A DNA stretch of 64,000 nt from Sulfurimonadaceae bacterium (GCA_041571435.1 JBFFUI010000002.1:76266-140265), one strand, 5' to 3'. Numbered from the stretch's first letter, positions 45,838 through 56,800 are shown. The notes: generated from the sequence alone by a model not told the origin. Numbers and translations are program-made.

Positions 45838-46405
45838 TAAGCTTCTCCAGCTCTTCTTTGGCTGCCTCAAGATCCGGCTCGATCTGCAACGCTTTTTCGT
45901 ACATCATCTTCGCCTCTGCAATACGCTTCATCTCGACCAGAAGGTTGGCGTAGTTGAAGTAGGTCACCTCATAATCGGGATCGAGCTCAATGGCACGCTT
46001 GTAATGTTCTTGCGCTTCATCAAAGCGTCCCATCGCTTTTAACTGGGAGGCGATCGCGAGGTGCGTCACATCTTCTTCTTTAAGTGAGAGCGAATGGTTG
46101 TAGAGTTTCAGTGCCTCTTCATTGTTGCCCATGGCACTCAACACAAAGCCCAACCGGTTGGCAAGCTCCGGGATGTCGCTATTGTAATTGTGGGCTTTTT
46201 GAAGCAGCTCTCTGGCTTCCAACAGACGTCCTTCATCATAAGCTCTGTCGGCCTCTTCGACCAACGTGTCGATATTGACACGCTCTTCTAACGCTTCGTG
46301 CGCATCCTCGCTGCCTTCAGGGTCCTGCAAGCCCTGCATGTGTTCATAGATCTTAAAGGCAAAAAATGCCGATGCTGCCAGTAAGATAATCTGCATTATA
46401 GTCAT
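45827..46405 (-). CDS. Membrane-anchored TPR protein
   Basis: N-terminal TM helix, several TPR repeats (YKRAIELDPDY). Confidence 0.85.
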   Translation of the reverse strand: MTIMQIILLAASAFFAFKIYEHMQGLQDPEGSEDAHEALEERVNIDTLVEEADRAYDEGRLLEARELLQKAHNYNSDIPELANRLGFVLSAMGNNEEALKLYNHSLSLKEEDVTHLAIASQLKAMGRFDEAQEHYKRAIELDPDYEVTYFNYANLLVEMKRIAEAKMMYEKALQIEPDLEAAKEELEKLNAR

Positions 46406-46522
46406 TGATATTCCTTTTGATATAAAAGTATACAAAGCCGAGGCTAAATCGAAGGTCACCCCAAAACAACAAAACAAATATAACATTTTAAAAGATTAAA
46501 ACATTAACAATTTATTCTAAAT

Positions 46523-46538
46523 TCACCTATATGGGTGA
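46523..46538. promoter_or_regulatory. Palindromic operator TCACC-N6-GGTGA
   Basis: TCACC TATATG GGTGA just upstream of TATAAT (46561); related copies at 49996 and 54003. Confidence 0.55.
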
Positions 46539-46602
46539 TGACTTTTCATGAAAATTGCTCTATAATGTTTTTCAAAAATGTAGAATACTTTTTTAAAAGG
46601 AA

Positions 46603-48423
46603 ATGTTGATGGCAATACGGAACAAACGTAAAGCAATTGGTTTAAGTCTCATTGTAACACTGGGGCTTGCTTCTGCATTGAACGCAGGTATTATTACAAC
46701 GCAGCAACAAGCTGCACCGAGTGTAGCACCTGGATTTAATGGTTTGAATCTGGATAACGTCGATGTGTTGATGACGGATGACTTGTTTGATCCGGCAGGG
46801 TTTTCCGGAACAGGTGATTTCAATAAAACGGATGGCTCTTACCCGACAATGACCTATGGCGACTCTTTTGAGAGCCAGGTAAAAGATGACAGCGGTACAG
46901 TCATGGTAAAACTTCACGGCAAGACCTGGCCTGTAGGCGAACCGCTGGGTATAAAAGTCATTACCGATTCGCCGGGCGACCCTCAAAACGGAAAACCGGA
47001 CAACTGTATTATGACGACCTCTTATCTGGATACAGGCTACCTGGATACAGACAGTCCTAATCCAACCAACTGTAACAGTCCATTCCAGACCCACAAACGT
47101 TTCAAAGCCAACCTGCAGCAAACGCTTGTTGACGGTGCGGGCGTTGAGAGCTTTGATCTTGTCTTCAATGTCGCACCCGAAGCGGATCCGGCAGTGCGCC
47201 GTTACCAGCTCTTTCAAAAGATCAACAACTACACGCAAGAGCGACTCTCGGGCTATAACGTTGAAGTCGGTTTCGGTGTCGGTGCAAACTTTACGCGTGC
47301 CGATTCAGCTGACATTACCCTTTCGATCGGTGAAGGCGAAAATGCAGGAGATGACATCTGGGCAGAAGCGGAACGCGCGACCTTTGCACACGGTCTTTGG
47401 GGACCGGTAGATAAGCACTTCCCGGTGCCTGGTTTCTTCAGCCAATACTCTGCAGGTTTTGAAGTCGCACTTGACGGTGACCAGAAAGGGGCGACTTCCG
47501 GACCTTCACTGGACGTAAACTATAATAGCAACTATCTAACACTGTTCGGCGAATGGCTGCCGAGAAAATGGGCACCGACTGGTATTTTCCACGATTTTGA
47601 CGATGATCCGACAACAGATGCGGATATCGTAGCATTTTGGGCAGACGTTGATGGTGACGGCACCTACGCCTGGACCTATGGCGGACCAAATTTCAACCTG
47701 GTCGACAACGCCACCCTTGAGTCATGGGCGGCAGACCGTCTGTACAGTGTCGGACTCATCGAAGATGTCCTTAACCTGGGTCTGAACTACATCATCAATA
47801 TCGGTGATGTTACGACATTCGATGACTTCAACGCCACCAGTGAGACAGCGACATTTACGATTCGTATCACACCGGTCAAAGGAACGACCGGAACGGAACC
47901 GGGCTGGATCACAAATCCGCCGATTCTCGGTACGGCGGGAAGCCTGGGTGCCGTTTCAATCGGGGCCGATCCGTTTGCACCGGGTGATGTATTGACCATT
48001 ATTGTCACGGATGGCGATCTCAACGAAGACAACACGACCATTGAAACTGTAGAGATCAATGTGACAAATACGCTCGGTGAGACAGAGCTCGTGACGTTGA
48101 CAGAGATCGCGCAGACATCGGGGTACTTCAGAGGTACACTCGCTACCAACGATTCAGACGTGGCAGGTACAGATAACGACGGTATTCTGAACGTAACGAA
48201 TGGTTCACTGGTGACAGCGACCTATAACGATGCCGATGACGGTACTGGAAGCCCTGCTGTTGTAACGGACACGGCACTGGCACAAACACCGGTTACGCCA
48301 CCGCCAAGTAACAACGATACAGCTGATGGCTTTTCAACGATGGATAACGTCAGTCTTTTCGCAATGATCTTCGGATTCCTTGCCATAGGCGGTTTCATCG
48401 CACGTAAACGACTCGCCAAGTAA
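46603..48423 (+). CDS. Surface protein, choice-of-anchor F-like, with C-terminal TM/basic sorting tail
   Basis: Signal peptide; WPVGEPLGIK, NCIMTTSYL, CNSPFQTHKRFK; Pro/Thr linker then GFSTMDNVSL + TM helix + RKRLAK. Confidence 0.75.
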   Translation: MLMAIRNKRKAIGLSLIVTLGLASALNAGIITTQQQAAPSVAPGFNGLNLDNVDVLMTDDLFDPAGFSGTGDFNKTDGSYPTMTYGDSFESQVKDDSGTVMVKLHGKTWPVGEPLGIKVITDSPGDPQNGKPDNCIMTTSYLDTGYLDTDSPNPTNCNSPFQTHKRFKANLQQTLVDGAGVESFDLVFNVAPEADPAVRRYQLFQKINNYTQERLSGYNVEVGFGVGANFTRADSADITLSIGEGENAGDDIWAEAERATFAHGLWGPVDKHFPVPGFFSQYSAGFEVALDGDQKGATSGPSLDVNYNSNYLTLFGEWLPRKWAPTGIFHDFDDDPTTDADIVAFWADVDGDGTYAWTYGGPNFNLVDNATLESWAADRLYSVGLIEDVLNLGLNYIINIGDVTTFDDFNATSETATFTIRITPVKGTTGTEPGWITNPPILGTAGSLGAVSIGADPFAPGDVLTIIVTDGDLNEDNTTIETVEINVTNTLGETELVTLTEIAQTSGYFRGTLATNDSDVAGTDNDGILNVTNGSLVTATYNDADDGTGSPAVVTDTALAQTPVTPPPSNNDTADGFSTMDNVSLFAMIFGFLAIGGFIARKRLAK

Positions 48424-48437
48424 ACCCGGTATTGGCA

Positions 48438-48466
48438 TCATGCCCAGGTAGTTCATCTGGGCATGA
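48438..48466 (+). terminator. Hairpin after surface protein gene
   Basis: TCATGCCCAG-gtagttcat-CTGGGCATGA. Confidence 0.55.
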
Positions 48467-48573
48467 CTATACACCTCATCTCTTTCCAACCCCTCTTTTT
48501 CCCGCTTATACTTATACATCGCTAACGCTCTTCGCCTATAATTTTATTATCTGAATAATACAAAGGTTATAAG

Positions 48574-49146
48574 ATGAAAACAAATACAAATCAACGTAGA
48601 GATTTTTTGAGACTATTGGGTCTCGGTGCCATTGCAACGGCTTCGACAGCATTTGCAAGTGGTGGTGGCCGTAACAAACAAACGGTTGAATTGACTGAAG
48701 AACAGAAAGATACACTTTTCTTCATCTTCCAGGAAGAGAAAGTGGCAAGGGATGTTTATATCACCTTGGGCGAGCTCTATCCGGAGGAGTCAACATTTGC
48801 CAATATCCAGCTTTCAGAGCAGGAGCATATTTTGTCGGCACAGGTCCTGTGTGAACGTTACGGCATCGATACCTCAAGCGTCAACCTCTCGCTGGAGGAG
48901 GAGTATGTGGGGCAGTTTGAACTGCTGGCGATGCAAGAGCTTTATAACAACTGTATCGGCCTCGGTTCCGTCTCACTGCTCGAAGCACTTAAAGTCGGCG
49001 AGTTGATCGAGCTGACCGATATTGACGATCTTGAAGAGGCTGCCGAGGGGATGCCGTCGGATGTTGTCAAAGTCTACGACAACTTGAAAGCAGGAAGCCT
49101 GAACCATTTGGATGCATTTCAAACAGCGATCGCCAGAGAGTCATAA
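48574..49146 (+). CDS. Tat-exported ferritin-like protein (DUF2202)
   Basis: QRRDFLR twin-arginine signal; EEKVARDVY, SEQEH, GSLNHLDAF. Confidence 0.85.
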   Translation: MKTNTNQRRDFLRLLGLGAIATASTAFASGGGRNKQTVELTEEQKDTLFFIFQEEKVARDVYITLGELYPEESTFANIQLSEQEHILSAQVLCERYGIDTSSVNLSLEEEYVGQFELLAMQELYNNCIGLGSVSLLEALKVGELIELTDIDDLEEAAEGMPSDVVKVYDNLKAGSLNHLDAFQTAIARES

Positions 49147-49175
49147 ACGGTACATAATAAAACGAGGAGAAGACC

Positions 49176-49598
49176 ATGAACATGCTAATGATCAACACCC
49201 CTGTGAAAAAGAAGCTGACACTCGCTCTCCTCGCCTACTACGAGACACTTAAACGAGGGGATCTGCAGGCACAGTCTACTCTGATGACAAAAGAGTCCTA
49301 TCTCCTTACCTTGGAAGCTGTGGGGTTTAAACGCGCATTCAAAGATCCCGAATTCAAAGCCCTTCTAAAAAAAATCAGCGATGATGAAAAGGCACTGCAC
49401 ACAGTTGAGACAATACTCTCAAATGATTTGGCTGCCGAAGCAAGAGAACATGACATAGCACTTCTCTCATTTGATCCGAAAGGGTCAGACCGCATGACCG
49501 TCCGTTACACGGAAGACGGGCACCCTAAAAAACTCTACTTCTCATCGCTCTCCGGAGAGTGGAAGATCGACTATAAAGCCGGCCGGCGAAAAATATAA
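49176..49598 (+). CDS. Hypothetical protein (possible NTF2-like fold)
   Basis: 140-aa ORF with GAGGAG RBS. Confidence 0.7.
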   Translation: MNMLMINTPVKKKLTLALLAYYETLKRGDLQAQSTLMTKESYLLTLEAVGFKRAFKDPEFKALLKKISDDEKALHTVETILSNDLAAEAREHDIALLSFDPKGSDRMTVRYTEDGHPKKLYFSSLSGEWKIDYKAGRRKI

Positions 49599-49603
49599 CG
49601 ACC

Positions 49604-49903
49604 CTATTTAAGGGTTAAGATATGCTGCGCCAACGCCGCGGCATCATCCGCATCCACACCTTTTAATTTCGCCTGGTGCATACCTAGGTAGCGTGACGAG
49701 ACTTTGCTCGTTCCATCCAGAAACGCCCGGATGCTTGTCGTCATCTGCTCTTCACTTAGCGTGTTAAGCTTGGGTGAGGTCTTCAAAGCGATCTTTTCCC
49801 CCTTCTTGCCGTGACACATCGCACACTTTTTATAGATAGATGCGCCATCGAAAGCGGAGAGTGCCAATGCACCCAGGGTCAGCAACAAAACAATCTTTTT
49901 CAT
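49604..49903 (-). CDS. Periplasmic monoheme cytochrome c
   Basis: Signal peptide, CAMCHG, distal Met (GMH). Confidence 0.9.
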   Translation of the reverse strand: MKKIVLLLTLGALALSAFDGASIYKKCAMCHGKKGEKIALKTSPKLNTLSEEQMTTSIRAFLDGTSKVSSRYLGMHQAKLKGVDADDAAALAQHILTLK

Positions 49904-50066
49904 CTTTTCCTCTCTATTCTCTCTCTTTTACGCTATTTTAAAACAGACTTGCTTAAAATGGATGTTAATCAAATCTCTTCAAAATCATTAAAAAATCACC
50001 CCTTGGTAGGATGCATTTTTTGTTTTTTTTGACTACTCAAATGTATCTTAATAAAAAGGAGTCTTT

Positions 50067-51428
50067 GTGAAGCAGCTACATCGTTTTGCCTTGTTTTCAT
50101 GCTGTCTGCTCTTATTTGGCTTTTTGGAAAACGCACAGGCTGTTCCCGGTTTTGCACGACAGACCGGGTTAGAGTGTATGATGTGTCATACCCAAAACCA
50201 GACCAAACTGAACCGTTTTGGACGCGAGTTCGCCCGTTCAGCCTATACCATGAGCTCGGAGTCCGGTGCACAGTCGCTTATCGACGGCGAAGCACTTGGC
50301 CTCAGTATTCCCTCGGTGCTTAACATGTCCTTGATGTTAAAAGGACGGATCGAAAAAAGTGACGGGGCCATCAACGGAAAAGGCAATGTCCTTGAATCAA
50401 AAGTTGACGGCGAGAAGATCGACAGCAACCGCGGAATCTATGAGTTCTTCAAAACCTCGACCATCAATGTTGCCGGGCGCGTCGCCAACAATGTCGGTAC
50501 GATCATCGAATTTAGAGAGAAAGAGGGCAAAGCGATCTTCGGCGGAAAGATCGCAACCGCTTTTGAAACAGGCAGCGGCTATAGCGGTCTAGCCGTCTAT
50601 TCCACAAACAACTATGGTCCGTTCAGCGGAATCGAAAGTTACAATACCGGTCTCTACAAGCCCTTGCGCCAGTTCGAAAATCACAAATTGACCAACGCTG
50701 CCCAGGCATCCGATCTTGGAAGCGGACCGGCCACCGGTCTGCAGCTTTACTATGGAGGCGAAAATCTCTTTGTGACACTCGGTGCCTATGTGCCGATACA
50801 TAACAATGACGGCATCGACATTGGCGACAGCATGATCCCTTTTGCCCGAATAGCGTATGAGCAGCCTCTCGGTGATTTGACGCTTACTGTAGGGGCTTTC
50901 GGTATCAGCGGTACTGCTACAGCCAGCAATACCACATTTTATCCTGCACTCTCGGGTCTGATCCCCGATGCGCTTGTCGGGGTAAAAAAAGAGGCCTACG
51001 GTTTTGACCTGCAGCTCGAAGGTGTCATCTTGGATATCGAGACATTGATGACCTTTGTTGCTGTACCGAAAAACAAAACAACGCTGAGTGATGCCTCCTT
51101 GATGGTCTATGAGACAAAACCACTCTCTGACTCAGTCTATGGTGAACCGGAAGACGCTGAGACGGCAGCCTACTCTGTCGATCTCTCCATCCACCCATGG
51201 CCGTCGCTTGGCTTTAAAGTGGCCTACTTGACCGCCGACGACAGCGGCCCACACACCTATGAACTCGACAAGATCGACGTCAAGGACAAGGACGCCGTCA
51301 CACTCGGGTTTGACTATTCATTCCGTCAAAACGTATTGCTGACCATGGAGTACTCGATGGTCAATGCAAAAAAAGAGGAGATCGAAAACTATAACGATCT
51401 CTTAACTGTTCTAACGATCTCATTTTAA
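50067..51428 (+). CDS. Cyc2-like cytochrome c-porin fusion (copy 1)
   Basis: AVPGFARQTGLECMMCH...LNRFGREF..SAY N-terminus, beta-barrel C-terminus ending in Phe. Confidence 0.85.
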   Translation: MKQLHRFALFSCCLLLFGFLENAQAVPGFARQTGLECMMCHTQNQTKLNRFGREFARSAYTMSSESGAQSLIDGEALGLSIPSVLNMSLMLKGRIEKSDGAINGKGNVLESKVDGEKIDSNRGIYEFFKTSTINVAGRVANNVGTIIEFREKEGKAIFGGKIATAFETGSGYSGLAVYSTNNYGPFSGIESYNTGLYKPLRQFENHKLTNAAQASDLGSGPATGLQLYYGGENLFVTLGAYVPIHNNDGIDIGDSMIPFARIAYEQPLGDLTLTVGAFGISGTATASNTTFYPALSGLIPDALVGVKKEAYGFDLQLEGVILDIETLMTFVAVPKNKTTLSDASLMVYETKPLSDSVYGEPEDAETAAYSVDLSIHPWPSLGFKVAYLTADDSGPHTYELDKIDVKDKDAVTLGFDYSFRQNVLLTMEYSMVNAKKEEIENYNDLLTVLTISF

Positions 51429-51437
51429 ATGGAGTGT

Positions 51438-52712
51438 ATGATGAAAAAAATGACTAAAAACGTACTATTGTTCTCAACAGTCTTACTGCTGACCGTGGCA
51501 GAGTCCGCTTATGCTCAACCCGGATTTTCACGCCAGACGGGTAAAGAGTGCAGCGCATGTCACGTCCAGAACATGCCGAAACTCAACAGCTACGGTCGCC
51601 ACTTTGCCCGTTCAGGCTATACGCTTTATGACACCGAAAATGAGCTGCAGTCTGCAATAGAGGGCTCAGACATGCCGTTGAGCCTGCCAGGCGTCTTGAA
51701 TGCTTCGGCTGTCTTGAAAGCGCGCTACAGCAAAGTCGAATCGGTGCGTGGCGAGGTCAATGTCCTCAATGGTACAGGCCTCTACTTCGGTGGACGGTTT
51801 GCCGAAAATGTGGGTGGTCTTGTTGCATTGACTGGTGATCCGTCTGAAGATCGCGATGTTGTTTTTGGGGCAAAGATGATACTCTCTTTTGCGTCGCTCA
51901 ACGGCTATAGCGGTCTTTCGCTCTACTCAACACAGACGAACGGGATCTTCACGGGTATGGAGAACTATAACACCGGTCTCTACGCACCGCTGAAACAATT
52001 TGAGTTCGCAAACGTCACCAATGCCGCACAGGCGACTGCCCTTGGCCGCGGTCCGGCAACCGGTATTCAAGCCTATTACGGTGATGATCATTTTCTGATG
52101 ACCCTTGGAGCGGCTATTCCGTCACAGAACAGTGAGGGGATCGATGCCGGCGGCAGTCTTCTTCCTTTCGGACGTATCGCCTATAATCAGCCGATAGGCG
52201 GGTGGGACCTTATGCTCGGTGCATACGGTTTTTCCGGTGATGTCAAAGCAAGCAATCTAAGTCTTGACGGTGGTGCAATTGACCGCAGTGGCGAACTTGT
52301 GACTGTGCATAAAGAAGGGTATGGTCTGGACTTTGAAGCCTCAGGGTCGATCGCCGATATGATGACCATGACGACGATCAACGTCGTACTCAAAAACAGT
52401 GTTTCAACAGACCTCAATGTCAGCAGCGACAGCCTACAGCAGACCGACAATCAGGGCGCATCGATTGAGTTCCAAATCAACCCTGTTACACCGTTTGGCA
52501 TCAAGCTCGCTTATCTGACCTACAAAAGCAATGATACAAAAGAGGGATTGGAATTTGTCCGTTCCTATGACTTTGATGCCCCTTCAGTCGGGATAAACTA
52601 CCTTTTCCGTCAAAACATCAATATCGATCTTCAATACACATACAACGATATAAGAGCCGAAGAGATGGCCGATTTTTACGAGCTGTACCTCTCTGCTGTC
52701 ATAGCCTTTTAG
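51438..52712 (+). CDS. Cyc2-like cytochrome c-porin fusion (copy 2)
   Basis: AQPGFSRQTGKECSACH...PKLNSYGRHF..SGY; barrel ending AVIAF. Confidence 0.85.
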   Translation: MMKKMTKNVLLFSTVLLLTVAESAYAQPGFSRQTGKECSACHVQNMPKLNSYGRHFARSGYTLYDTENELQSAIEGSDMPLSLPGVLNASAVLKARYSKVESVRGEVNVLNGTGLYFGGRFAENVGGLVALTGDPSEDRDVVFGAKMILSFASLNGYSGLSLYSTQTNGIFTGMENYNTGLYAPLKQFEFANVTNAAQATALGRGPATGIQAYYGDDHFLMTLGAAIPSQNSEGIDAGGSLLPFGRIAYNQPIGGWDLMLGAYGFSGDVKASNLSLDGGAIDRSGELVTVHKEGYGLDFEASGSIADMMTMTTINVVLKNSVSTDLNVSSDSLQQTDNQGASIEFQINPVTPFGIKLAYLTYKSNDTKEGLEFVRSYDFDAPSVGINYLFRQNINIDLQYTYNDIRAEEMADFYELYLSAVIAF

Positions 52713-52800
52713 TGCCGTTGGGAGCGGGTTTCCCTTCTGCTAACACACCGCTTACACTCCCTGTGTTATAATATTTACAACTTCACAAAAAGGGTTAAAA

Positions 52801-53133
52801 ATGAACAAGCTTCTATTTACAGTCTCAGCAGGACTGCTTCTTACTATTGGTGCACAAGGTGCAGAGCAGACCCCTACTAAACTGCAGCAAAAAACCATGA
52901 CACAGCAAAAAACAGGTAATGGCGGCGGTGGTCAAGGTAAAAAGCAGATCAAACACCTATACAAATATCAAAACCAATACAAATACCAGGGTACAAATGG
53001 TCAAGGTAGTGGACAAGGTGCAGGCAGTGGGACAGCCCAAGGCGGCGGTAAGGGCCAGGGTTACGGCAAAGGCCAGGGAGGCGGAAAGTCGGCTAACGCA
53101 GGTGGCGGTGGCGGTAGCGGCAAAGGCCGTTAA
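52801..53133 (+). CDS. Small secreted Gly/Gln-rich protein
   Basis: Signal peptide, YKYQNQYKYQ, GQG/GGG repeats; TGTTATAAT promoter upstream. Confidence 0.75.
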   Translation: MNKLLFTVSAGLLLTIGAQGAEQTPTKLQQKTMTQQKTGNGGGGQGKKQIKHLYKYQNQYKYQGTNGQGSGQGAGSGTAQGGGKGQGYGKGQGGGKSANAGGGGGSGKGR

Positions 53134-53137
53134 CCAA

Positions 53138-53173
53138 ACATCTTCAGTCAGAGATATTCCTGACTGAAGATGT
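53138..53173. terminator. Bidirectional hairpin between convergent genes
   Basis: Perfect 14-bp stem ACATCTTCAGTCAG / CTGACTGAAGATGT. Confidence 0.7.
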
Positions 53174-53181
53174 CCCACTGT

Positions 53182-53952
53182 TTAATGGATGACCGTTAGT
53201 TTATTATGCAGTTCTATTTTGGAACAGACGCCATACTTTCTGAATATATTTTTCATATGTGTTTTAACCGTATTGAGAGAGATATTCAGCTCTTGCGCAA
53301 TCTCTTTATGTGACTTCCCCTGCAGAACACGCTGTGTAACCTCTTTCTCTTTTCCCGTCAACCGTTTCATCATATTATCGATCTGGACACATCTTACACG
53401 GAGGATATGTCTGTCGTCATCGTAGAGAAGGCGGGTAAGAAGCTCAAATATCTCGGTCAGATGCGAAATGTCCCCGGTCTTATTCTTGCTCCCTGTAAAG
53501 AGGTAGATGATCAAACCGATCCGTCTGCCGGCCTTGTTTCGTATCGGCGTTAATAGTGCATGATCAAACCCCAGCTCCTTTTCAAACTCGGCCGTTTTTT
53601 TCTTTGAGAGGTGGCCATCAAAAAGATTATGAAGACTTTCGACCTTGACCTGGGTTTGTGACGCTGTAAAATGCGAGTTGCATTGCTGAAGAAACCTATC
53701 GAGCTCCAGATGTTTGGCCGAAAGTTTATACTTGCTTAACAGAGAGAGGAACTTGAACTTCTCTTCCAGGATCAGTTCAATATCGGCCCCACCTTCATTC
53801 TCAAGACAGACGGCAATAACATTGGCTCCGCTCTCTTCCAAAAAGAACTGGGTCTCTTGACGCAAAATTGTTTTGAGACTATACCCTTCGATAATAGCGG
53901 ATTGCAGAGAGATGATTTTTTGCAGAAGTGCGGTATCAGTGATCGTCATCAT
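53182..53952 (-). CDS. LuxR/GerE-type HTH regulator with N-terminal GAF-like sensor
   Basis: LTGKEKEV..GKSHKEIAQELNISLNTVKTHMKNIFRK; no receiver Asp motif in the N-terminus. Confidence 0.88.
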   Translation of the reverse strand: MMTITDTALLQKIISLQSAIIEGYSLKTILRQETQFFLEESGANVIAVCLENEGGADIELILEEKFKFLSLLSKYKLSAKHLELDRFLQQCNSHFTASQTQVKVESLHNLFDGHLSKKKTAEFEKELGFDHALLTPIRNKAGRRIGLIIYLFTGSKNKTGDISHLTEIFELLTRLLYDDDRHILRVRCVQIDNMMKRLTGKEKEVTQRVLQGKSHKEIAQELNISLNTVKTHMKNIFRKYGVCSKIELHNKLTVIH

Positions 53953-54079
53953 AAATACTTTCTTGAGATTAGTTCCTATATCATAACTGTTTCAGCCCAA
54001 TATAACCCTAAAAGGTGATAATATAGGTACTCATTCTGCCAGGTTCTTTTACCCTGTAAGAAGGAAGGAGCGTCTCTGT

Positions 54080-54622
54080 ATGCTGTGGTTTGTACTGCGT
54101 TATGCTATCTGGTCTCTGCTGCTTTTCGCACTTATCTTTTTTGAGACGTACTCGCCGTTTTACTTCATCAACGGGCTTCAGACCGATGCCACCATCTATA
54201 TCACCGGGCTCTGGATAACGTTCATGGATATTCCTGTCACGCTTTCCGGCAACAGCCTCATCTTCGAACACGGCATGCATCTTTTGATCCTGAATGAGTG
54301 CAATGGTCTCACACCCTTGCTGCTCTATCTCGCGGCCATTCTTGCCTATCCGACTCGCTACCGTATCAAGATCAAATGGTTTTTTGGCGGCATGATCGTG
54401 TTATTGACACTCAACATGGTGCGCATCGTCCTGATCACACTGCTCGTCATCGACTACCCTGACAGTTTTGAGTTTGCACACAATTTTGTCGGCCGCTACA
54501 CCATCGGCGTTGTAACGCTCTACCTGTTTTACTTCTTTACCACACACGTCACCACATGTACCCCTTACGGTATTATCCTCAATGGAAAAAACTGCCACAG
54601 CAAGCCTTCTATGAAAAAATAG
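54080..54622 (+). CDS. Exosortase/archaeosortase family protein (short, XrtH-like)
   Basis: Multi-TM; ECNG (Cys), NMVR (Arg), FAHN (His) triad. Confidence 0.88.
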   Translation: MLWFVLRYAIWSLLLFALIFFETYSPFYFINGLQTDATIYITGLWITFMDIPVTLSGNSLIFEHGMHLLILNECNGLTPLLLYLAAILAYPTRYRIKIKWFFGGMIVLLTLNMVRIVLITLLVIDYPDSFEFAHNFVGRYTIGVVTLYLFYFFTTHVTTCTPYGIILNGKNCHSKPSMKK

Positions 54623-54703
54623 CACGTCTCCTTAATCCCTGAAACAGGCGTTTTGCACCATTATGCTATAATCATCAAAACTAATATCTATAATGAGCGA
54701 AAC

Positions 54704-56800
54704 GTGATCAATTTAAAAGACCCAAAATACTATAACAATCGTGAGATTTCATGGCTTCAATTTAATACCCGTGTACTTAAACAGGCGCAGGATGAATCAC
54801 AACCACTGCTTGAACGCCTTAAATTTCTGGCTATCTACGGTACCAATCTTGACGAGTTCTATATGATCCGTGTTGCCGGTCTTAAAAAACTCTTCTCTGC
54901 CGGGGTGATGGTCTCAGGTGCCGATCGTCTGACCCCTATGCAGCAGCTGCGTGAGATCCGTAAGTATCTGCATCAGGAACTTCAGGTCGTCGAATACACC
55001 CTCTCCGAGATCTTTAAAAAACTGGAAAAAGAGGGTATCTTCGTCCGTTCGTTCAAAGAGGTCAACCAGCAGCAGAAGTATCAGCTCAACCGTTACTTCA
55101 CAGAGCAGATCTACCCGGTTATCGTTCCTATCGCTGTCGATGCGACCCACCCCTTCCCGCATCTGAACAACCTCAGCTTCGGTCTGATCGTCAAACTTAT
55201 AGACCTGGACAATCAAGAGGTAGAACGAAACGGGATCGTCCGTATTCCACGTGTACTGCCCCGTTTTATCGAGCTTGAAAGCGGTACCTACGTCCCGATA
55301 GAGAGTGTCGTCGCCGAACATATCAGCGATCTTTTCCCGGGGTATACTCTCCGGGATCATGTTCCTTTCCGTGTCACCCGCAATGCCGATATTACCATCG
55401 AAGAGGAAGAGGCTGATGACTTTATGGAGATACTGGAAGAGGGTCTGCGTCTTCGTAAAAAAGGGGAATTGGTCCGTCTTGAGTTGGGTCAGGAGAGCAA
55501 TCCTGACCTGCTTAACTTTTTTAACCGCCACACCAATATCTATAAAGATGACATCTACCGTTTCTCAAGTATTCTCAACCTGGGCAGCCTTTGGCAGATC
55601 GTCGGCAGCAAAGACTTTGCCCATTTGACAACACCGCCTTTTAAACCGCGCCTCTTACCGCCGTTTGATAGCAACGAGAACATCTTCAGCATCCTCGATA
55701 AACAGGATGCACTGTTGTATCACCCTTATGAAAGTTTTGAACCGGTCGTCAAACTTATCCAGACCGCCGCCAAGGACCCGGACGTTGTCTCCATCAAGAT
55801 GACACTGTACCGTTCAGGTACCAACTCGCCTATTGTCAACGCTCTGATGCAGGCCGCCGAGATGGGGAAACAGGTTACGACGATGGTCGAGCTCAAAGCC
55901 CGTTTTGATGAGGAGAACAATCTTATCTGGGCAAAAGCCCTCGAAAATGCCGGCGCCCATGTTATCTACGGGATCCCCGGCTTTAAAGTCCATGCAAAGG
56001 CGACCCTGATCACCCGACGCGTTGATAATGGTCTCAAACAGTATGCCCACCTTGCAACCGGAAACTACAACCCACAGACCGCCAAGATCTATACCGATAC
56101 TTCATACATGACCAGTAACGAAGAGATCACCAATGACCTGACCCGTTTTTTTCATTTTCTGACCGGCTTCAGTAAAAAAGGGAAGCTTAACAAGCTCTAC
56201 ATGTCACCGACGCAGATCAAACCCAAGATCCTCTCGATGATCCAGAACGAAGCAAAAAAAGGGAGTGAAGGCCAGATCATCGCCAAGGTCAACTCACTGG
56301 TTGACGAAGATGTTATCCGCGGGCTCTACAAGGCATCGCAGGCAGGGGTGAAGATAGAGCTTATCGTTCGTGGTATCTGCTGTCTGAAGCCAGGTATAGC
56401 CGGTGTCAGTGACAATATCCGCGTCATCTCCGTCATCGGTAAATACCTTGAACATGCCCGGGTCTTCTATTTCAAACACGCTACCCCGAAGTTATTCATC
56501 TCAAGTGCTGACTGGATGCCACGTAACCTCGTCCGACGTATTGAGCTCTTAAGCGGGATAGACGACATTGCCAGTGCCGATAAACTGCTCAACATGTTAC
56601 AGCTTCAGATCTCTGACAATGTACTCGCCCATGAGTTGCAGAGTGATGGCTGCTACCATAAGATCAAAAGCGAGAAGAGCAAAATCATCAATAATCAGAA
56701 GCTATTTGAAAGCCACGCCAACAAAGTCTATAAGTCAATCAAAAAAGAGACGCCGAACTATGTTCAGAACCTGGCGACACGACTGTTTAAAGAGAGCTAG
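54704..56800 (+). CDS. ppk1: Polyphosphate kinase 1
   Basis: NREISWLQFN, NLDEFYMIRV, HPYESF, ELKARFDE, SSADWMPRN; start uncertain (GTG 54704 assumed). Confidence 0.97.
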   Translation: MINLKDPKYYNNREISWLQFNTRVLKQAQDESQPLLERLKFLAIYGTNLDEFYMIRVAGLKKLFSAGVMVSGADRLTPMQQLREIRKYLHQELQVVEYTLSEIFKKLEKEGIFVRSFKEVNQQQKYQLNRYFTEQIYPVIVPIAVDATHPFPHLNNLSFGLIVKLIDLDNQEVERNGIVRIPRVLPRFIELESGTYVPIESVVAEHISDLFPGYTLRDHVPFRVTRNADITIEEEEADDFMEILEEGLRLRKKGELVRLELGQESNPDLLNFFNRHTNIYKDDIYRFSSILNLGSLWQIVGSKDFAHLTTPPFKPRLLPPFDSNENIFSILDKQDALLYHPYESFEPVVKLIQTAAKDPDVVSIKMTLYRSGTNSPIVNALMQAAEMGKQVTTMVELKARFDEENNLIWAKALENAGAHVIYGIPGFKVHAKATLITRRVDNGLKQYAHLATGNYNPQTAKIYTDTSYMTSNEEITNDLTRFFHFLTGFSKKGKLNKLYMSPTQIKPKILSMIQNEAKKGSEGQIIAKVNSLVDEDVIRGLYKASQAGVKIELIVRGICCLKPGIAGVSDNIRVISVIGKYLEHARVFYFKHATPKLFISSADWMPRNLVRRIELLSGIDDIASADKLLNMLQLQISDNVLAHELQSDGCYHKIKSEKSKIINNQKLFESHANKVYKSIKKETPNYVQNLATRLFKES

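Follow-up and report, generated by a model that had tools for sequence, protein, structure and literature searches.

A probable dedicated exosortase and sorting-signal pair at the two ends of a Cyc2 locus in Sulfurimonadaceae

Does an exosortase gene at one end of a Cyc2 locus serve the surface-protein gene at the other end, and has either of them anything to do with Cyc2? The question is raised by a 64,000-nucleotide stretch of DNA from a Sulfurimonadaceae bacterium (GCA_041571435.1 JBFFUI010000002.1:76266-140265), here called the window. All coordinates are those of this whole stretch, in which the block under study spans positions 46603-54622; G000 is the window's own genome, whose completeness is put at 100% by marker genes, other G labels are further genomes, and L labels are loci compared. 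Cyc2, whose gene serves as the marker for neutrophilic iron oxidation, is regarded as an outer-membrane protein that acts without partners, and exosortase systems are known mostly from bioinformatics. A preliminary description of this DNA had proposed that the Cyc2 locus is bracketed by a short exosortase and an acidic protein with a non-PEP sorting tail, both belonging to a dedicated, possibly unnamed sorting system. Our results agree with this proposal in most respects. We consider it probable that the block contains a dedicated sorting pair, in which an exosortase of an unnamed clade and its own C-terminal signal sort an acidic surface cargo.

The client gene (46603-48423, + strand) encodes a 606-amino-acid (aa) precursor that matches choice-of-anchor F (NF033657; E value of 1.4e-63, 215.3 bits, cut-off of 50), and Pfam has no match for it. 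The N-terminus looks like a signal peptide, and the C-terminus reads ...TPVTPPPSNNDTADGFSTMDNVSLFAMIFGFLAIGGFIARKRLAK, that is, a Pro/Thr linker, GFSTMDNVSL, a hydrophobic helix, and a basic end; sequence and structural model (helix at residues 582-605) agree here with the preliminary description. Following the linker (residues 563-574; 48289-48324, +), the candidate sorting tail (residues 575-606; 48325-48420, +) comprises FSTMDNVSL, a transmembrane helix with GFLAIG, and the basic end ARKRLAK. C-terminal sorting signals are described in a preprint (10.1101/2023.06.07.544157) as tripartite, with a signature, a helix, and a basic cluster. The window client has this layout: its signature is followed by a hydrophobic stretch of helix length and by a basic cluster at the extreme C-terminus. 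LPXTG, PEP, and GlyGly motifs are absent from its sequence, as had been reported.

To describe the signal, we aligned tails on their GFL motif, which was possible for 65 of the 68 tails found by a hidden Markov model (HMM). Counting from the G of GFL as position 0, an Asp at -10 (64/65), a Ser at -7 (62/65), a Leu at -6 (61/65), an Ile at -2 (59/65), the G-F-L itself at 0 to +2 (61, 63, and 62 of 65), a Gly at +5 (65/65), an Ile at +8 (56/65), an Arg at +10 (65/65), and a Leu at +13 (61/65) recur throughout, and a Phe at -14 (41/65) and an Asn at -9 (42/65) are frequent. Positions +11 and +12 are [RK][KR], not tallied as a class, and none of the 65 tails contains a Cys. The signature is thus F-x-x-x-D-N-x-S-L, followed by a transmembrane helix containing GFLxIG and then R-[RK]-[KR]-L. 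The earlier term "FSxxD-type" was right in pointing to a sorting signature and is better replaced by this wording. Two flavors can be told apart: x-x-D-N-x-S-L (xMDNVSLFAMIFGFL; 43/68), which includes the window client, and V-N-D-x-x-S-L-L-F-T-I-F (VNDxxSLLFTIFGFL; 19/68), which includes an S8 peptidase encoded beside a second exosortase. The D-N pair caps the helix in the predicted model. With so many positions nearly fixed, the tail is more conserved than an ordinary membrane anchor would require.

A comparison of the tail with existing CTERM models had been suggested as a check; none in NCBIfam (release 20.0) matched it above cut-off, nor did any model in Pfam. Namely, PEP-CTERM (TIGR02595) gave no match at an E value of up to 10, and no PEP precedes the helix; the LPXTG model (TIGR01167) reached 13.8-14.3 bits over the helix part alone, under its cut-off of 15.9; and neither JDVT-CTERM (NF033191) nor MYXO-CTERM (TIGR03901) matched. 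A profile of 11 tails (40 positions) was then compared with 1.84 billion representative proteins. It found 23 matches at an E value of at most 0.001, and all 23 finish within 3 residues of the protein C-terminus. Eleven are choice-of-anchor F proteins, one is a choice-of-anchor O protein, one is a subtilisin-like peptidase, one has only an S-layer-like immunoglobulin-like (Ig-like) region, and nine are short fragments with no match; CTERM models matched none of the 23. A tail that is so rare and so strictly C-terminal in such a large collection is far beyond chance.

Other choice-of-anchor F proteins provide a further comparison. We inspected the tails of the best 120 of 542 homologues of the client's core domain, and 48 of these 120 carry the tail described here (HMM, E value of at most 1e-3). 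Other homologues end in Cys-containing tails that hmmscan recognizes above cut-off, as JDVT-CTERM in P0159, P0076, P0106, and P0103 and as MYXO-CTERM in P0065, and hmmscan matches nothing in tail-bearing homologues such as P0083. These recognized tails serve as a positive control for the CTERM search. They also indicate that the new tail occupies the place of accepted sorting signals on orthologous proteins.

The exosortase gene (54080-54622, +) encodes a protein of 180 aa that scores above the cut-off of the superfamily model TIGR04178 (54 versus 23 bits), and most of its homologues are annotated with PF09721. According to the preprint cited above (10.1101/2023.06.07.544157), exosortases and archaeosortases share a Cys/Arg/His triad, as in sortases. 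The triad of the window exosortase, Cys74 (54299-54301), Arg115 (54422-54424), and His134 (54479-54481), is invariant in two homologue alignments of 16 and 15 sequences, so that the triad is intact, as first described. The protein nonetheless falls below the cut-offs of all named Xrt and Art families. The best-scoring of these is XrtX (NF046081; 48.4 bits versus a cut-off of 170, over model positions 27-158 of 168; relatives, 40.7-44.4 bits), followed by XrtH (TIGR04177; 46.2 versus 86; three relatives, 43.1, 29.5, and 35.4), ArtB (42.2 versus 150), and XrtF (35.5 versus 90). Judged from sequence, then, the tail and the exosortase belong to no named family by curated cut-offs, and there is no curated or published model of the tail. 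In a crude hydropathy scan of the exosortase, some of its segments, not all, lie above threshold.

A profile of this exosortase retrieved 58 clusters from 5.8 billion proteins, and wherever a source gives a name, it is the generic "exosortase/archaeosortase family protein"; Sulfuricurvum sp., a Thiomicrorhabdus chilensis metagenome-assembled genome, and Thiomicrorhabdus sp. are among the sources identified by name. Our tree, a quick search with a midpoint root that we use for subclades alone, sets the clade apart from four distantly related short exosortases of this same family of bacteria and divides it into five subclades, namely the window, C24, G299, Sulfuricurvum/G139, and Thiomicrorhabdus types. 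Exosortases of the window type (about 180 aa) share a C-terminal extension (54557-54622 in the window) with two conserved Cys residues (T-C-x-P-Y-G...N-C-H), which the other subclades lack. A complex prediction of the exosortase with a 40-residue tail scored 0.11, with the mark at 0.32, and weighs neither way.

If the two elements form a pair, they should be found in the same genomes. We searched 353 Sulfurimonadaceae genomes with the exosortase profile, which gave matches at an E value of at most 0.001 in 32 genomes, in two tiers: an upper tier of 10 genes in 8 genomes (E value of at most 1e-50) and a lower tier of 24 genomes (4e-22 or weaker). A profile of five tails matched at 12 places (E value of at most 6e-13), and the genomes concerned are the 8 of the upper tier and no others. 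Sequences of G000, G076, and G077, or near copies, supplied part of both profiles, so that the matches there are partly by construction; those in G075, G117, G139, G141, and G299 and at the second place in G076 are independent of profile building. These 8 genomes, which come from sulfur-oxidizing bacteria, represent three genera, with four, three, and one genome each. Eleven other genomes listed for the tail profile match through the helix part alone (E values of 0.002-0.009), and none of them has an exosortase match. Among 281 evenly sampled Campylobacterota genomes, which cover 14 families, the tail and the close exosortase clade are both confined to the same two genomes, G000 and G075, and nine genomes of this sample with distant short exosortases (E values of 1e-11 to 2e-30) have no tail match. 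The preliminary description had named co-occurrence as the check on its proposal, and the identical genome sets in both samples, together with scores below all named cut-offs, favor a dedicated, unnamed system with a non-PEP tail. The pair also seems to cross phyla, as both elements occur under Thiomicrorhabdus names: beside the exosortases listed above, Thiomicrorhabdus chilensis is named as the source of a choice-of-anchor F protein that bears the tail.

Gene order points in the same direction. At 6 of the 10 exosortase loci (G000 contig C24, G299, G141, G139, and two in G117), the exosortase gene begins right behind a tail-bearing gene or before that gene ends. The window's genus has another arrangement: in its four genomes, the cyc2 block comes between client and exosortase, at a distance of 4.6-5.7 kb from one to the other; in the window itself, 5,657 bases separate the end of the open reading frame (ORF) at 46603-48423 from the start of that at 54080-54622, in line with the 5.6 kb first reported, and the genes in between include two with Cyc2 motifs.

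The window's own genome encodes further clients and a second exosortase, which the preliminary description had not noted. Among all its open frames, scanned for helix-plus-basic ends, two more proteins have the same 30-residue tail; the three clients are unrelated in domain family, and all have signal-peptide-like N-termini. One is a choice-of-anchor O protein of 743 aa on contig C4 (L005 7890-10121, - strand), with no exosortase or cyc2 gene nearby. The other is an S8 subtilisin-like peptidase of 693 aa on contig C24, and 22 bp downstream of its gene starts the second of exactly two exosortase genes in this genome (171 aa, 41% identical to the window exosortase; TIGR04178, 44.9 bits). These two genes and a lipoprotein gene, which comes after the exosortase gene, form a compact three-gene unit (L003 8769-11748, equivalent to G000 contig C24 14768-17747). 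The 119-aa lipoprotein is 36% identical to the prodomain of the S8 peptidase itself (E value of 2e-14), a resemblance that suggests a possible stand-alone inhibitor or chaperone. Searches of G000 found no rhombosortase, no MrtJ above cut-off (a generic CPBP-like ORF reached 28.4 bits versus a cut-off of 75), and no PEP-CTERM match; the last of these is weak, since the same search was blank in its control genomes too. The two exosortases are thus left with no other visible clients, and across the system genomes the number of clients ranges from 1 to 3.

What kind of cargo would this pair sort? The mature client is acidic, as first described, with a computed isoelectric point (pI) of 4.05 and 78 Asp plus Glu versus 23 Lys plus Arg residues. 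An AlphaFold model of the whole protein, made with 69 sequences, has a mean predicted local distance difference test (pLDDT) value of 90.2 and a predicted template modeling (pTM) score of 0.82. It consists of a beta-rich core (residues 28-445; 46684-47937, +), an Ig-like stalk domain (residues 446-562; 47938-48288, +), a disordered linker at residues 568-581 (pLDDT below 50), and the terminal helix. The stalk resembles the Nitrosopumilus maritimus S-layer protein 8c8k_A near its C-terminus (chain residues 1498-1616; Z score of 16.4, root-mean-square deviation of 1.9 Å over 114 residues, 25% identity) and, weakly, a model of the Kustd1514 S-layer glycoprotein. Matches of the whole client in the fold search came through this domain alone.

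The core modeled alone (418 residues; pLDDT of 91.0, pTM of 0.91) had a best Z score of 4.2, and none at 5, against 48,161 solved chains. It may have an undescribed fold; since the model exceeds the size above which the search tool warns of missed matches, we treat a new fold as a lead and not as a result. Residues invariant in the 69 sequences include C135, C157, Q162, H164, K165, R166, D331, and D333. The core thus presents an invariant Cys pair, an invariant Q-x-H-K-R-x-K, and an Asp-rich D-x-D-x-D-P-x-T-D. Choice-of-anchor F proteins occur in 7 of the 353 family genomes (E value of at most 1e-10), with a short form in G299, and all of these are among the 8 system genomes.

Between client and exosortase lie two adjacent genes for predicted Cyc2-type fused cytochrome-porins, copy a (50067-51428, +; 453 aa, single CMMCH at residue 37) and copy b (51429-52712, +; 427 aa, single CSACH at residue 41), whose products are 39% identical. 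Both have a signal peptide, one CXXCH, and a length above the minimum among the Cyc2 criteria as given in PMC8406198, which are a signal peptide, a single CXXCH, and at least 365 aa. In that article, Keffer et al. describe AXPXFAR[Q/K][T/Y] before the heme site as a Cyc2-specific motif (PMC8406198). In keeping with this motif, copy a has AVPGFARQT in front of its heme site, and copy b has QPGFSRQT, with Ala replaced by Ser; four residues past CXXCH, at the place of the PXL motif, copy b reads PKL and copy a TKL. In the Protein Atlas, copy a falls into unnamed clusters only, one of which has Porin_O_P in 20% of its members.

Cyc2-type genes are present in 58 of the 353 family genomes, including all 8 system genomes, and within these 353 genomes the sorting system is seen only together with Cyc2. 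From the client gene to cyc2, the distance is 0.5-1.6 kb in the window's genus (four genomes) and 4.3 kb in G299. In G139 and G141, a single strand carries the cyc2, client, and exosortase genes in this order, directly abutting, with about 14 bases of gap or overlap at the junctions. This proximity holds in the 7 assessable genomes, from three genera; the contigs of G117 are too short. A metagenome scan with the exosortase alignment added 10 short contigs with LuxR/exosortase/PPK and cyc2 synteny, on which the client gene is beyond reach. Given that the client gene is joined to cyc2 in three genera, the most likely place for the cargo to act is at the surface with Cyc2. We put this forward tentatively, as a suggestion that we would not quite favor over its opposite; it is the weakest step of our argument and rests on gene order. 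The preliminary description had the client working with the Cyc2 pair, for instance in attaching to minerals or binding metals. Its gene linkage is seen in three genera, and the functional tie stays conjectural.

Several points weigh against a dedicated pair that sorts a partner of Cyc2. As described above, the matches in three of the genomes are partly the product of how the profiles were built. The 8 system genomes, coming from three genera, amount to about three independent lineages plus Thiomicrorhabdus and not to eight. The Thiomicrorhabdus co-occurrence is one of species names from two different assemblies and not of one genome. In the window's genus, client and exosortase do not share a single operon, and opposite-strand genes intervene. 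Cleavage, surface location, and the acceptor are presumed by analogy. Finally, 50 of the 58 Cyc2-bearing family genomes lack the sorting system; as Cyc2 is mostly present without it, the cargo would be at most an accessory of Cyc2.

The last point leads to the most serious alternative. The pair may be real and the cargo a generic protein of the surface-layer or adhesin type, with no tie to Cyc2 and a neighborhood that reflects joint transfer on a genomic island. This is a substantial possibility, though not one we would bet on: besides the count just given, the stalk resembles S-layer protein domains, the other two clients in G000 are far from cyc2, and block content varies among relatives, with the DUF2202 and 140-aa genes described below present in some and absent from others. 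Against it, the client neighbors cyc2 in 7 of 7 assessable genomes of three genera despite a rearranged order, and in G139 and G141 the two genes abut on the same strand. The choice-of-anchor O gene of G299 also lies between the exosortase and the cyc2 pair, and choice-of-anchor F is, in this family, confined to Cyc2-bearing genomes.

The pair itself could be questioned if the tail were a permanent, uncleaved anchor that keeps the protein on the inner membrane, facing the periplasm, and the exosortase did something else. A hydrophobic helix with a basic end would suffice for anchoring; even so, we regard this as very unlikely. Anchoring alone would not call for 8-9 nearly invariant positions across three unrelated protein families, and it predicts neither the strict co-occurrence with one exosortase clade nor the replacement of the tail by JDVT-CTERM or MYXO-CTERM in orthologues. 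The choice-of-anchor families are, moreover, defined by alternative sorting signals, as their NCBIfam names state. More improbable still is a sorting signal cut by another protease, CPBP/myxosortase-like or rhomboid, with an indirect link to the exosortase: the generic CPBP-like ORF of G000 and the MrtJ-processed JDVT-CTERM of client orthologues (10.1101/2023.06.07.544157) could speak for it, but the tail lacks the invariant Cys of myxosortase-type signals, G000 has no rhombosortase match, and tail genes adjoin the exosortase at 6 loci.

The remaining genes of the block are kept to differing degrees among relatives. Downstream of the client gene lie a DUF2202 gene whose product has a twin-arginine-like N-terminus (48574-49146, +; PF09968, E value of 8e-30) and the gene of a 140-aa protein with no family match (49176-49598, +). 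DUF2202 is present in L006 and L024, where homologues of the 140-aa gene follow it, and both genes are absent from L007 and L014. Next come a small monoheme cytochrome c with a signal peptide (49604-49903, -; PF00034, E value of 5e-8), kept at the same place in L006, L007, and L024, and, past the two cyc2 genes, a basic secreted protein of 110 aa that is rich in Gly, Gln, and Lys (52801-53133, +; pI of 10.3), characterized by composition and with no family match. A corresponding ORF follows the Cyc2 pair in L006, L007, L008, L014, L015, and L024. A gene for a LuxR-type regulator (53182-53952, -; PF00196, E value of 1.3e-15) is divergent from the exosortase gene; its top NCBIfam match is the helix-turn-helix part of EpsA (45.6 bits, under a cut-off of 170). 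A LuxR gene adjoins the exosortase in L006, L007, L014, L015, L017-L020, L023, and L024, and in L008 it stands upstream of the client gene instead. In G299 (L008 8446-11496), the choice-of-anchor O gene between the exosortase and the cyc2 pair encodes a tail-less protein of 1016 aa. A scan of 46300-54800 gave 7 promoter-like sites (11.6 expected) and 9 terminator-like sites (7.8 expected) and is uninformative.

Small dedicated exosortase systems are a known category, and many variants have been catalogued; what is new is this particular enzyme and signal. XrtH, which pairs with IPTL-CTERM targets, resembles the window system in its short length (about 160-180 aa), its Cys/Arg/His triad, and its few targets with their own signature. 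It differs in that the window exosortase reaches 46.2 bits where XrtH requires 86, and the tails match no IPTL-type model. XrtX (NF046081) is similar in length and is the best-scoring named family, but the window exosortase is far under its cut-off of 170; a literature search for XrtX or its targets found nothing. XrtA and XrtB, with their PEP-CTERM targets, belong to the same superfamily and share the tripartite logic, and the LuxR-type regulator beside the enzyme recalls EpsA with XrtB. In contrast, those enzymes have about 270-500 aa and many PEP-CTERM clients in exopolysaccharide loci, whereas the window enzyme has 180 aa, with 1-3 clients and no PEP motif.

Archaeosortase A and its PGF-CTERM S-layer glycoproteins offer another parallel: the window cargo shares the layout of their clients, in which large extracellular domains are followed by an Ig-like stalk, a Thr/Pro-rich linker, and a tail, and the stalk of the window client resembles an archaeal S-layer protein domain. 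Yet the window pair is bacterial and has another signature, and the second exosortase is below the ArtA cut-off. The JDVT-CTERM signal of MrtJ and the MYXO-CTERM signal of the myxosortases are found, on orthologues of the choice-of-anchor F client, in the position that the tail holds here. The preprint describes JDVT-CTERM as processed by MrtJ, and myxosortase-type signals as having an invariant Cys and glutamic-type CPBP proteases (10.1101/2023.06.07.544157); the window tail has no Cys and its enzyme is an exosortase. Searches of the literature for an exosortase with Cyc2, with Sulfurimonas, Sulfuricurvum, or Thiomicrorhabdus, for choice-of-anchor, and for XrtX or XrtH found no description of the pair among the papers listed; for Cyc2 they gave one paper, on "Ferrovum" by its title.

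Other Sulfurimonadaceae genera have different short exosortases, likewise below named cut-offs (L027 5189-7124, L029 3281-6238, and L030 4694-5845). Each is directly downstream of a gene for a protein with its own tail, respectively ...KSLPLSNTAIALMFF..., ...TVPLPLGASALMGLLF..., and ...AAPLSPKGYIALALSF..., and two of these targets bear choice-of-anchor Q/U domains. A further short exosortase type (L025 4841-5975, L026 4068-5250, and L028 5105-6221) always occurs with a partner of about 215 aa that ends in ...SYAARFEPFLIA... and matches no family; no tail-bearing target stands beside it. The Sulfurimonadaceae seem to be rich in unnamed dedicated sorting pairs.

How might the window pair work? 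We infer every step of the following mechanism from established exosortase and archaeosortase systems, among which the preprint names archaeosortase A as the sole system of the superfamily with helix removal and lipid attachment shown (10.1101/2023.06.07.544157). The choice-of-anchor F precursor would be exported by its N-terminal signal peptide. Its C-terminal helix would then hold it in the inner membrane, the basic end pointing into the cytoplasm. On the outer side of that membrane, helix and D-N-x-S-L signature would be recognized by the exosortase, whose Cys74/Arg115/His134 triad would cut off the helix. The mature acidic protein would then be handed to an anchor and end at the cell surface. 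We know of no exosortase system in diderms for which the step from the inner membrane to the cell surface has been established. The same system would serve choice-of-anchor O, and the S8 peptidase would probably be processed through the second exosortase.

At the surface, the cargo may act with the Cyc2 cytochrome-porins, for example, by binding cations or a mineral substrate or product. A broader version of this reading, which we consider doubtful, is that a mobile exosortase system found in Campylobacterota and in the gammaproteobacterial Thiomicrorhabdus mounts an acidic, novel-fold partner of Cyc2. Such a cargo might gather Fe(II) or other cations around the porin mouth, or keep oxidized mineral off the cell.

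Each new pair of enzyme and signal is a marker with which surface proteins can be annotated and cut sites predicted. As the pair described here is small, has a sharp signature, and is present in the named genera Thiomicrorhabdus and Sulfuricurvum, it could provide a simple test system for the exosortase mechanism. If the cargo does work with Cyc2, a pathway otherwise made up of a single protein would gain its first accessory part in this sorted surface partner.

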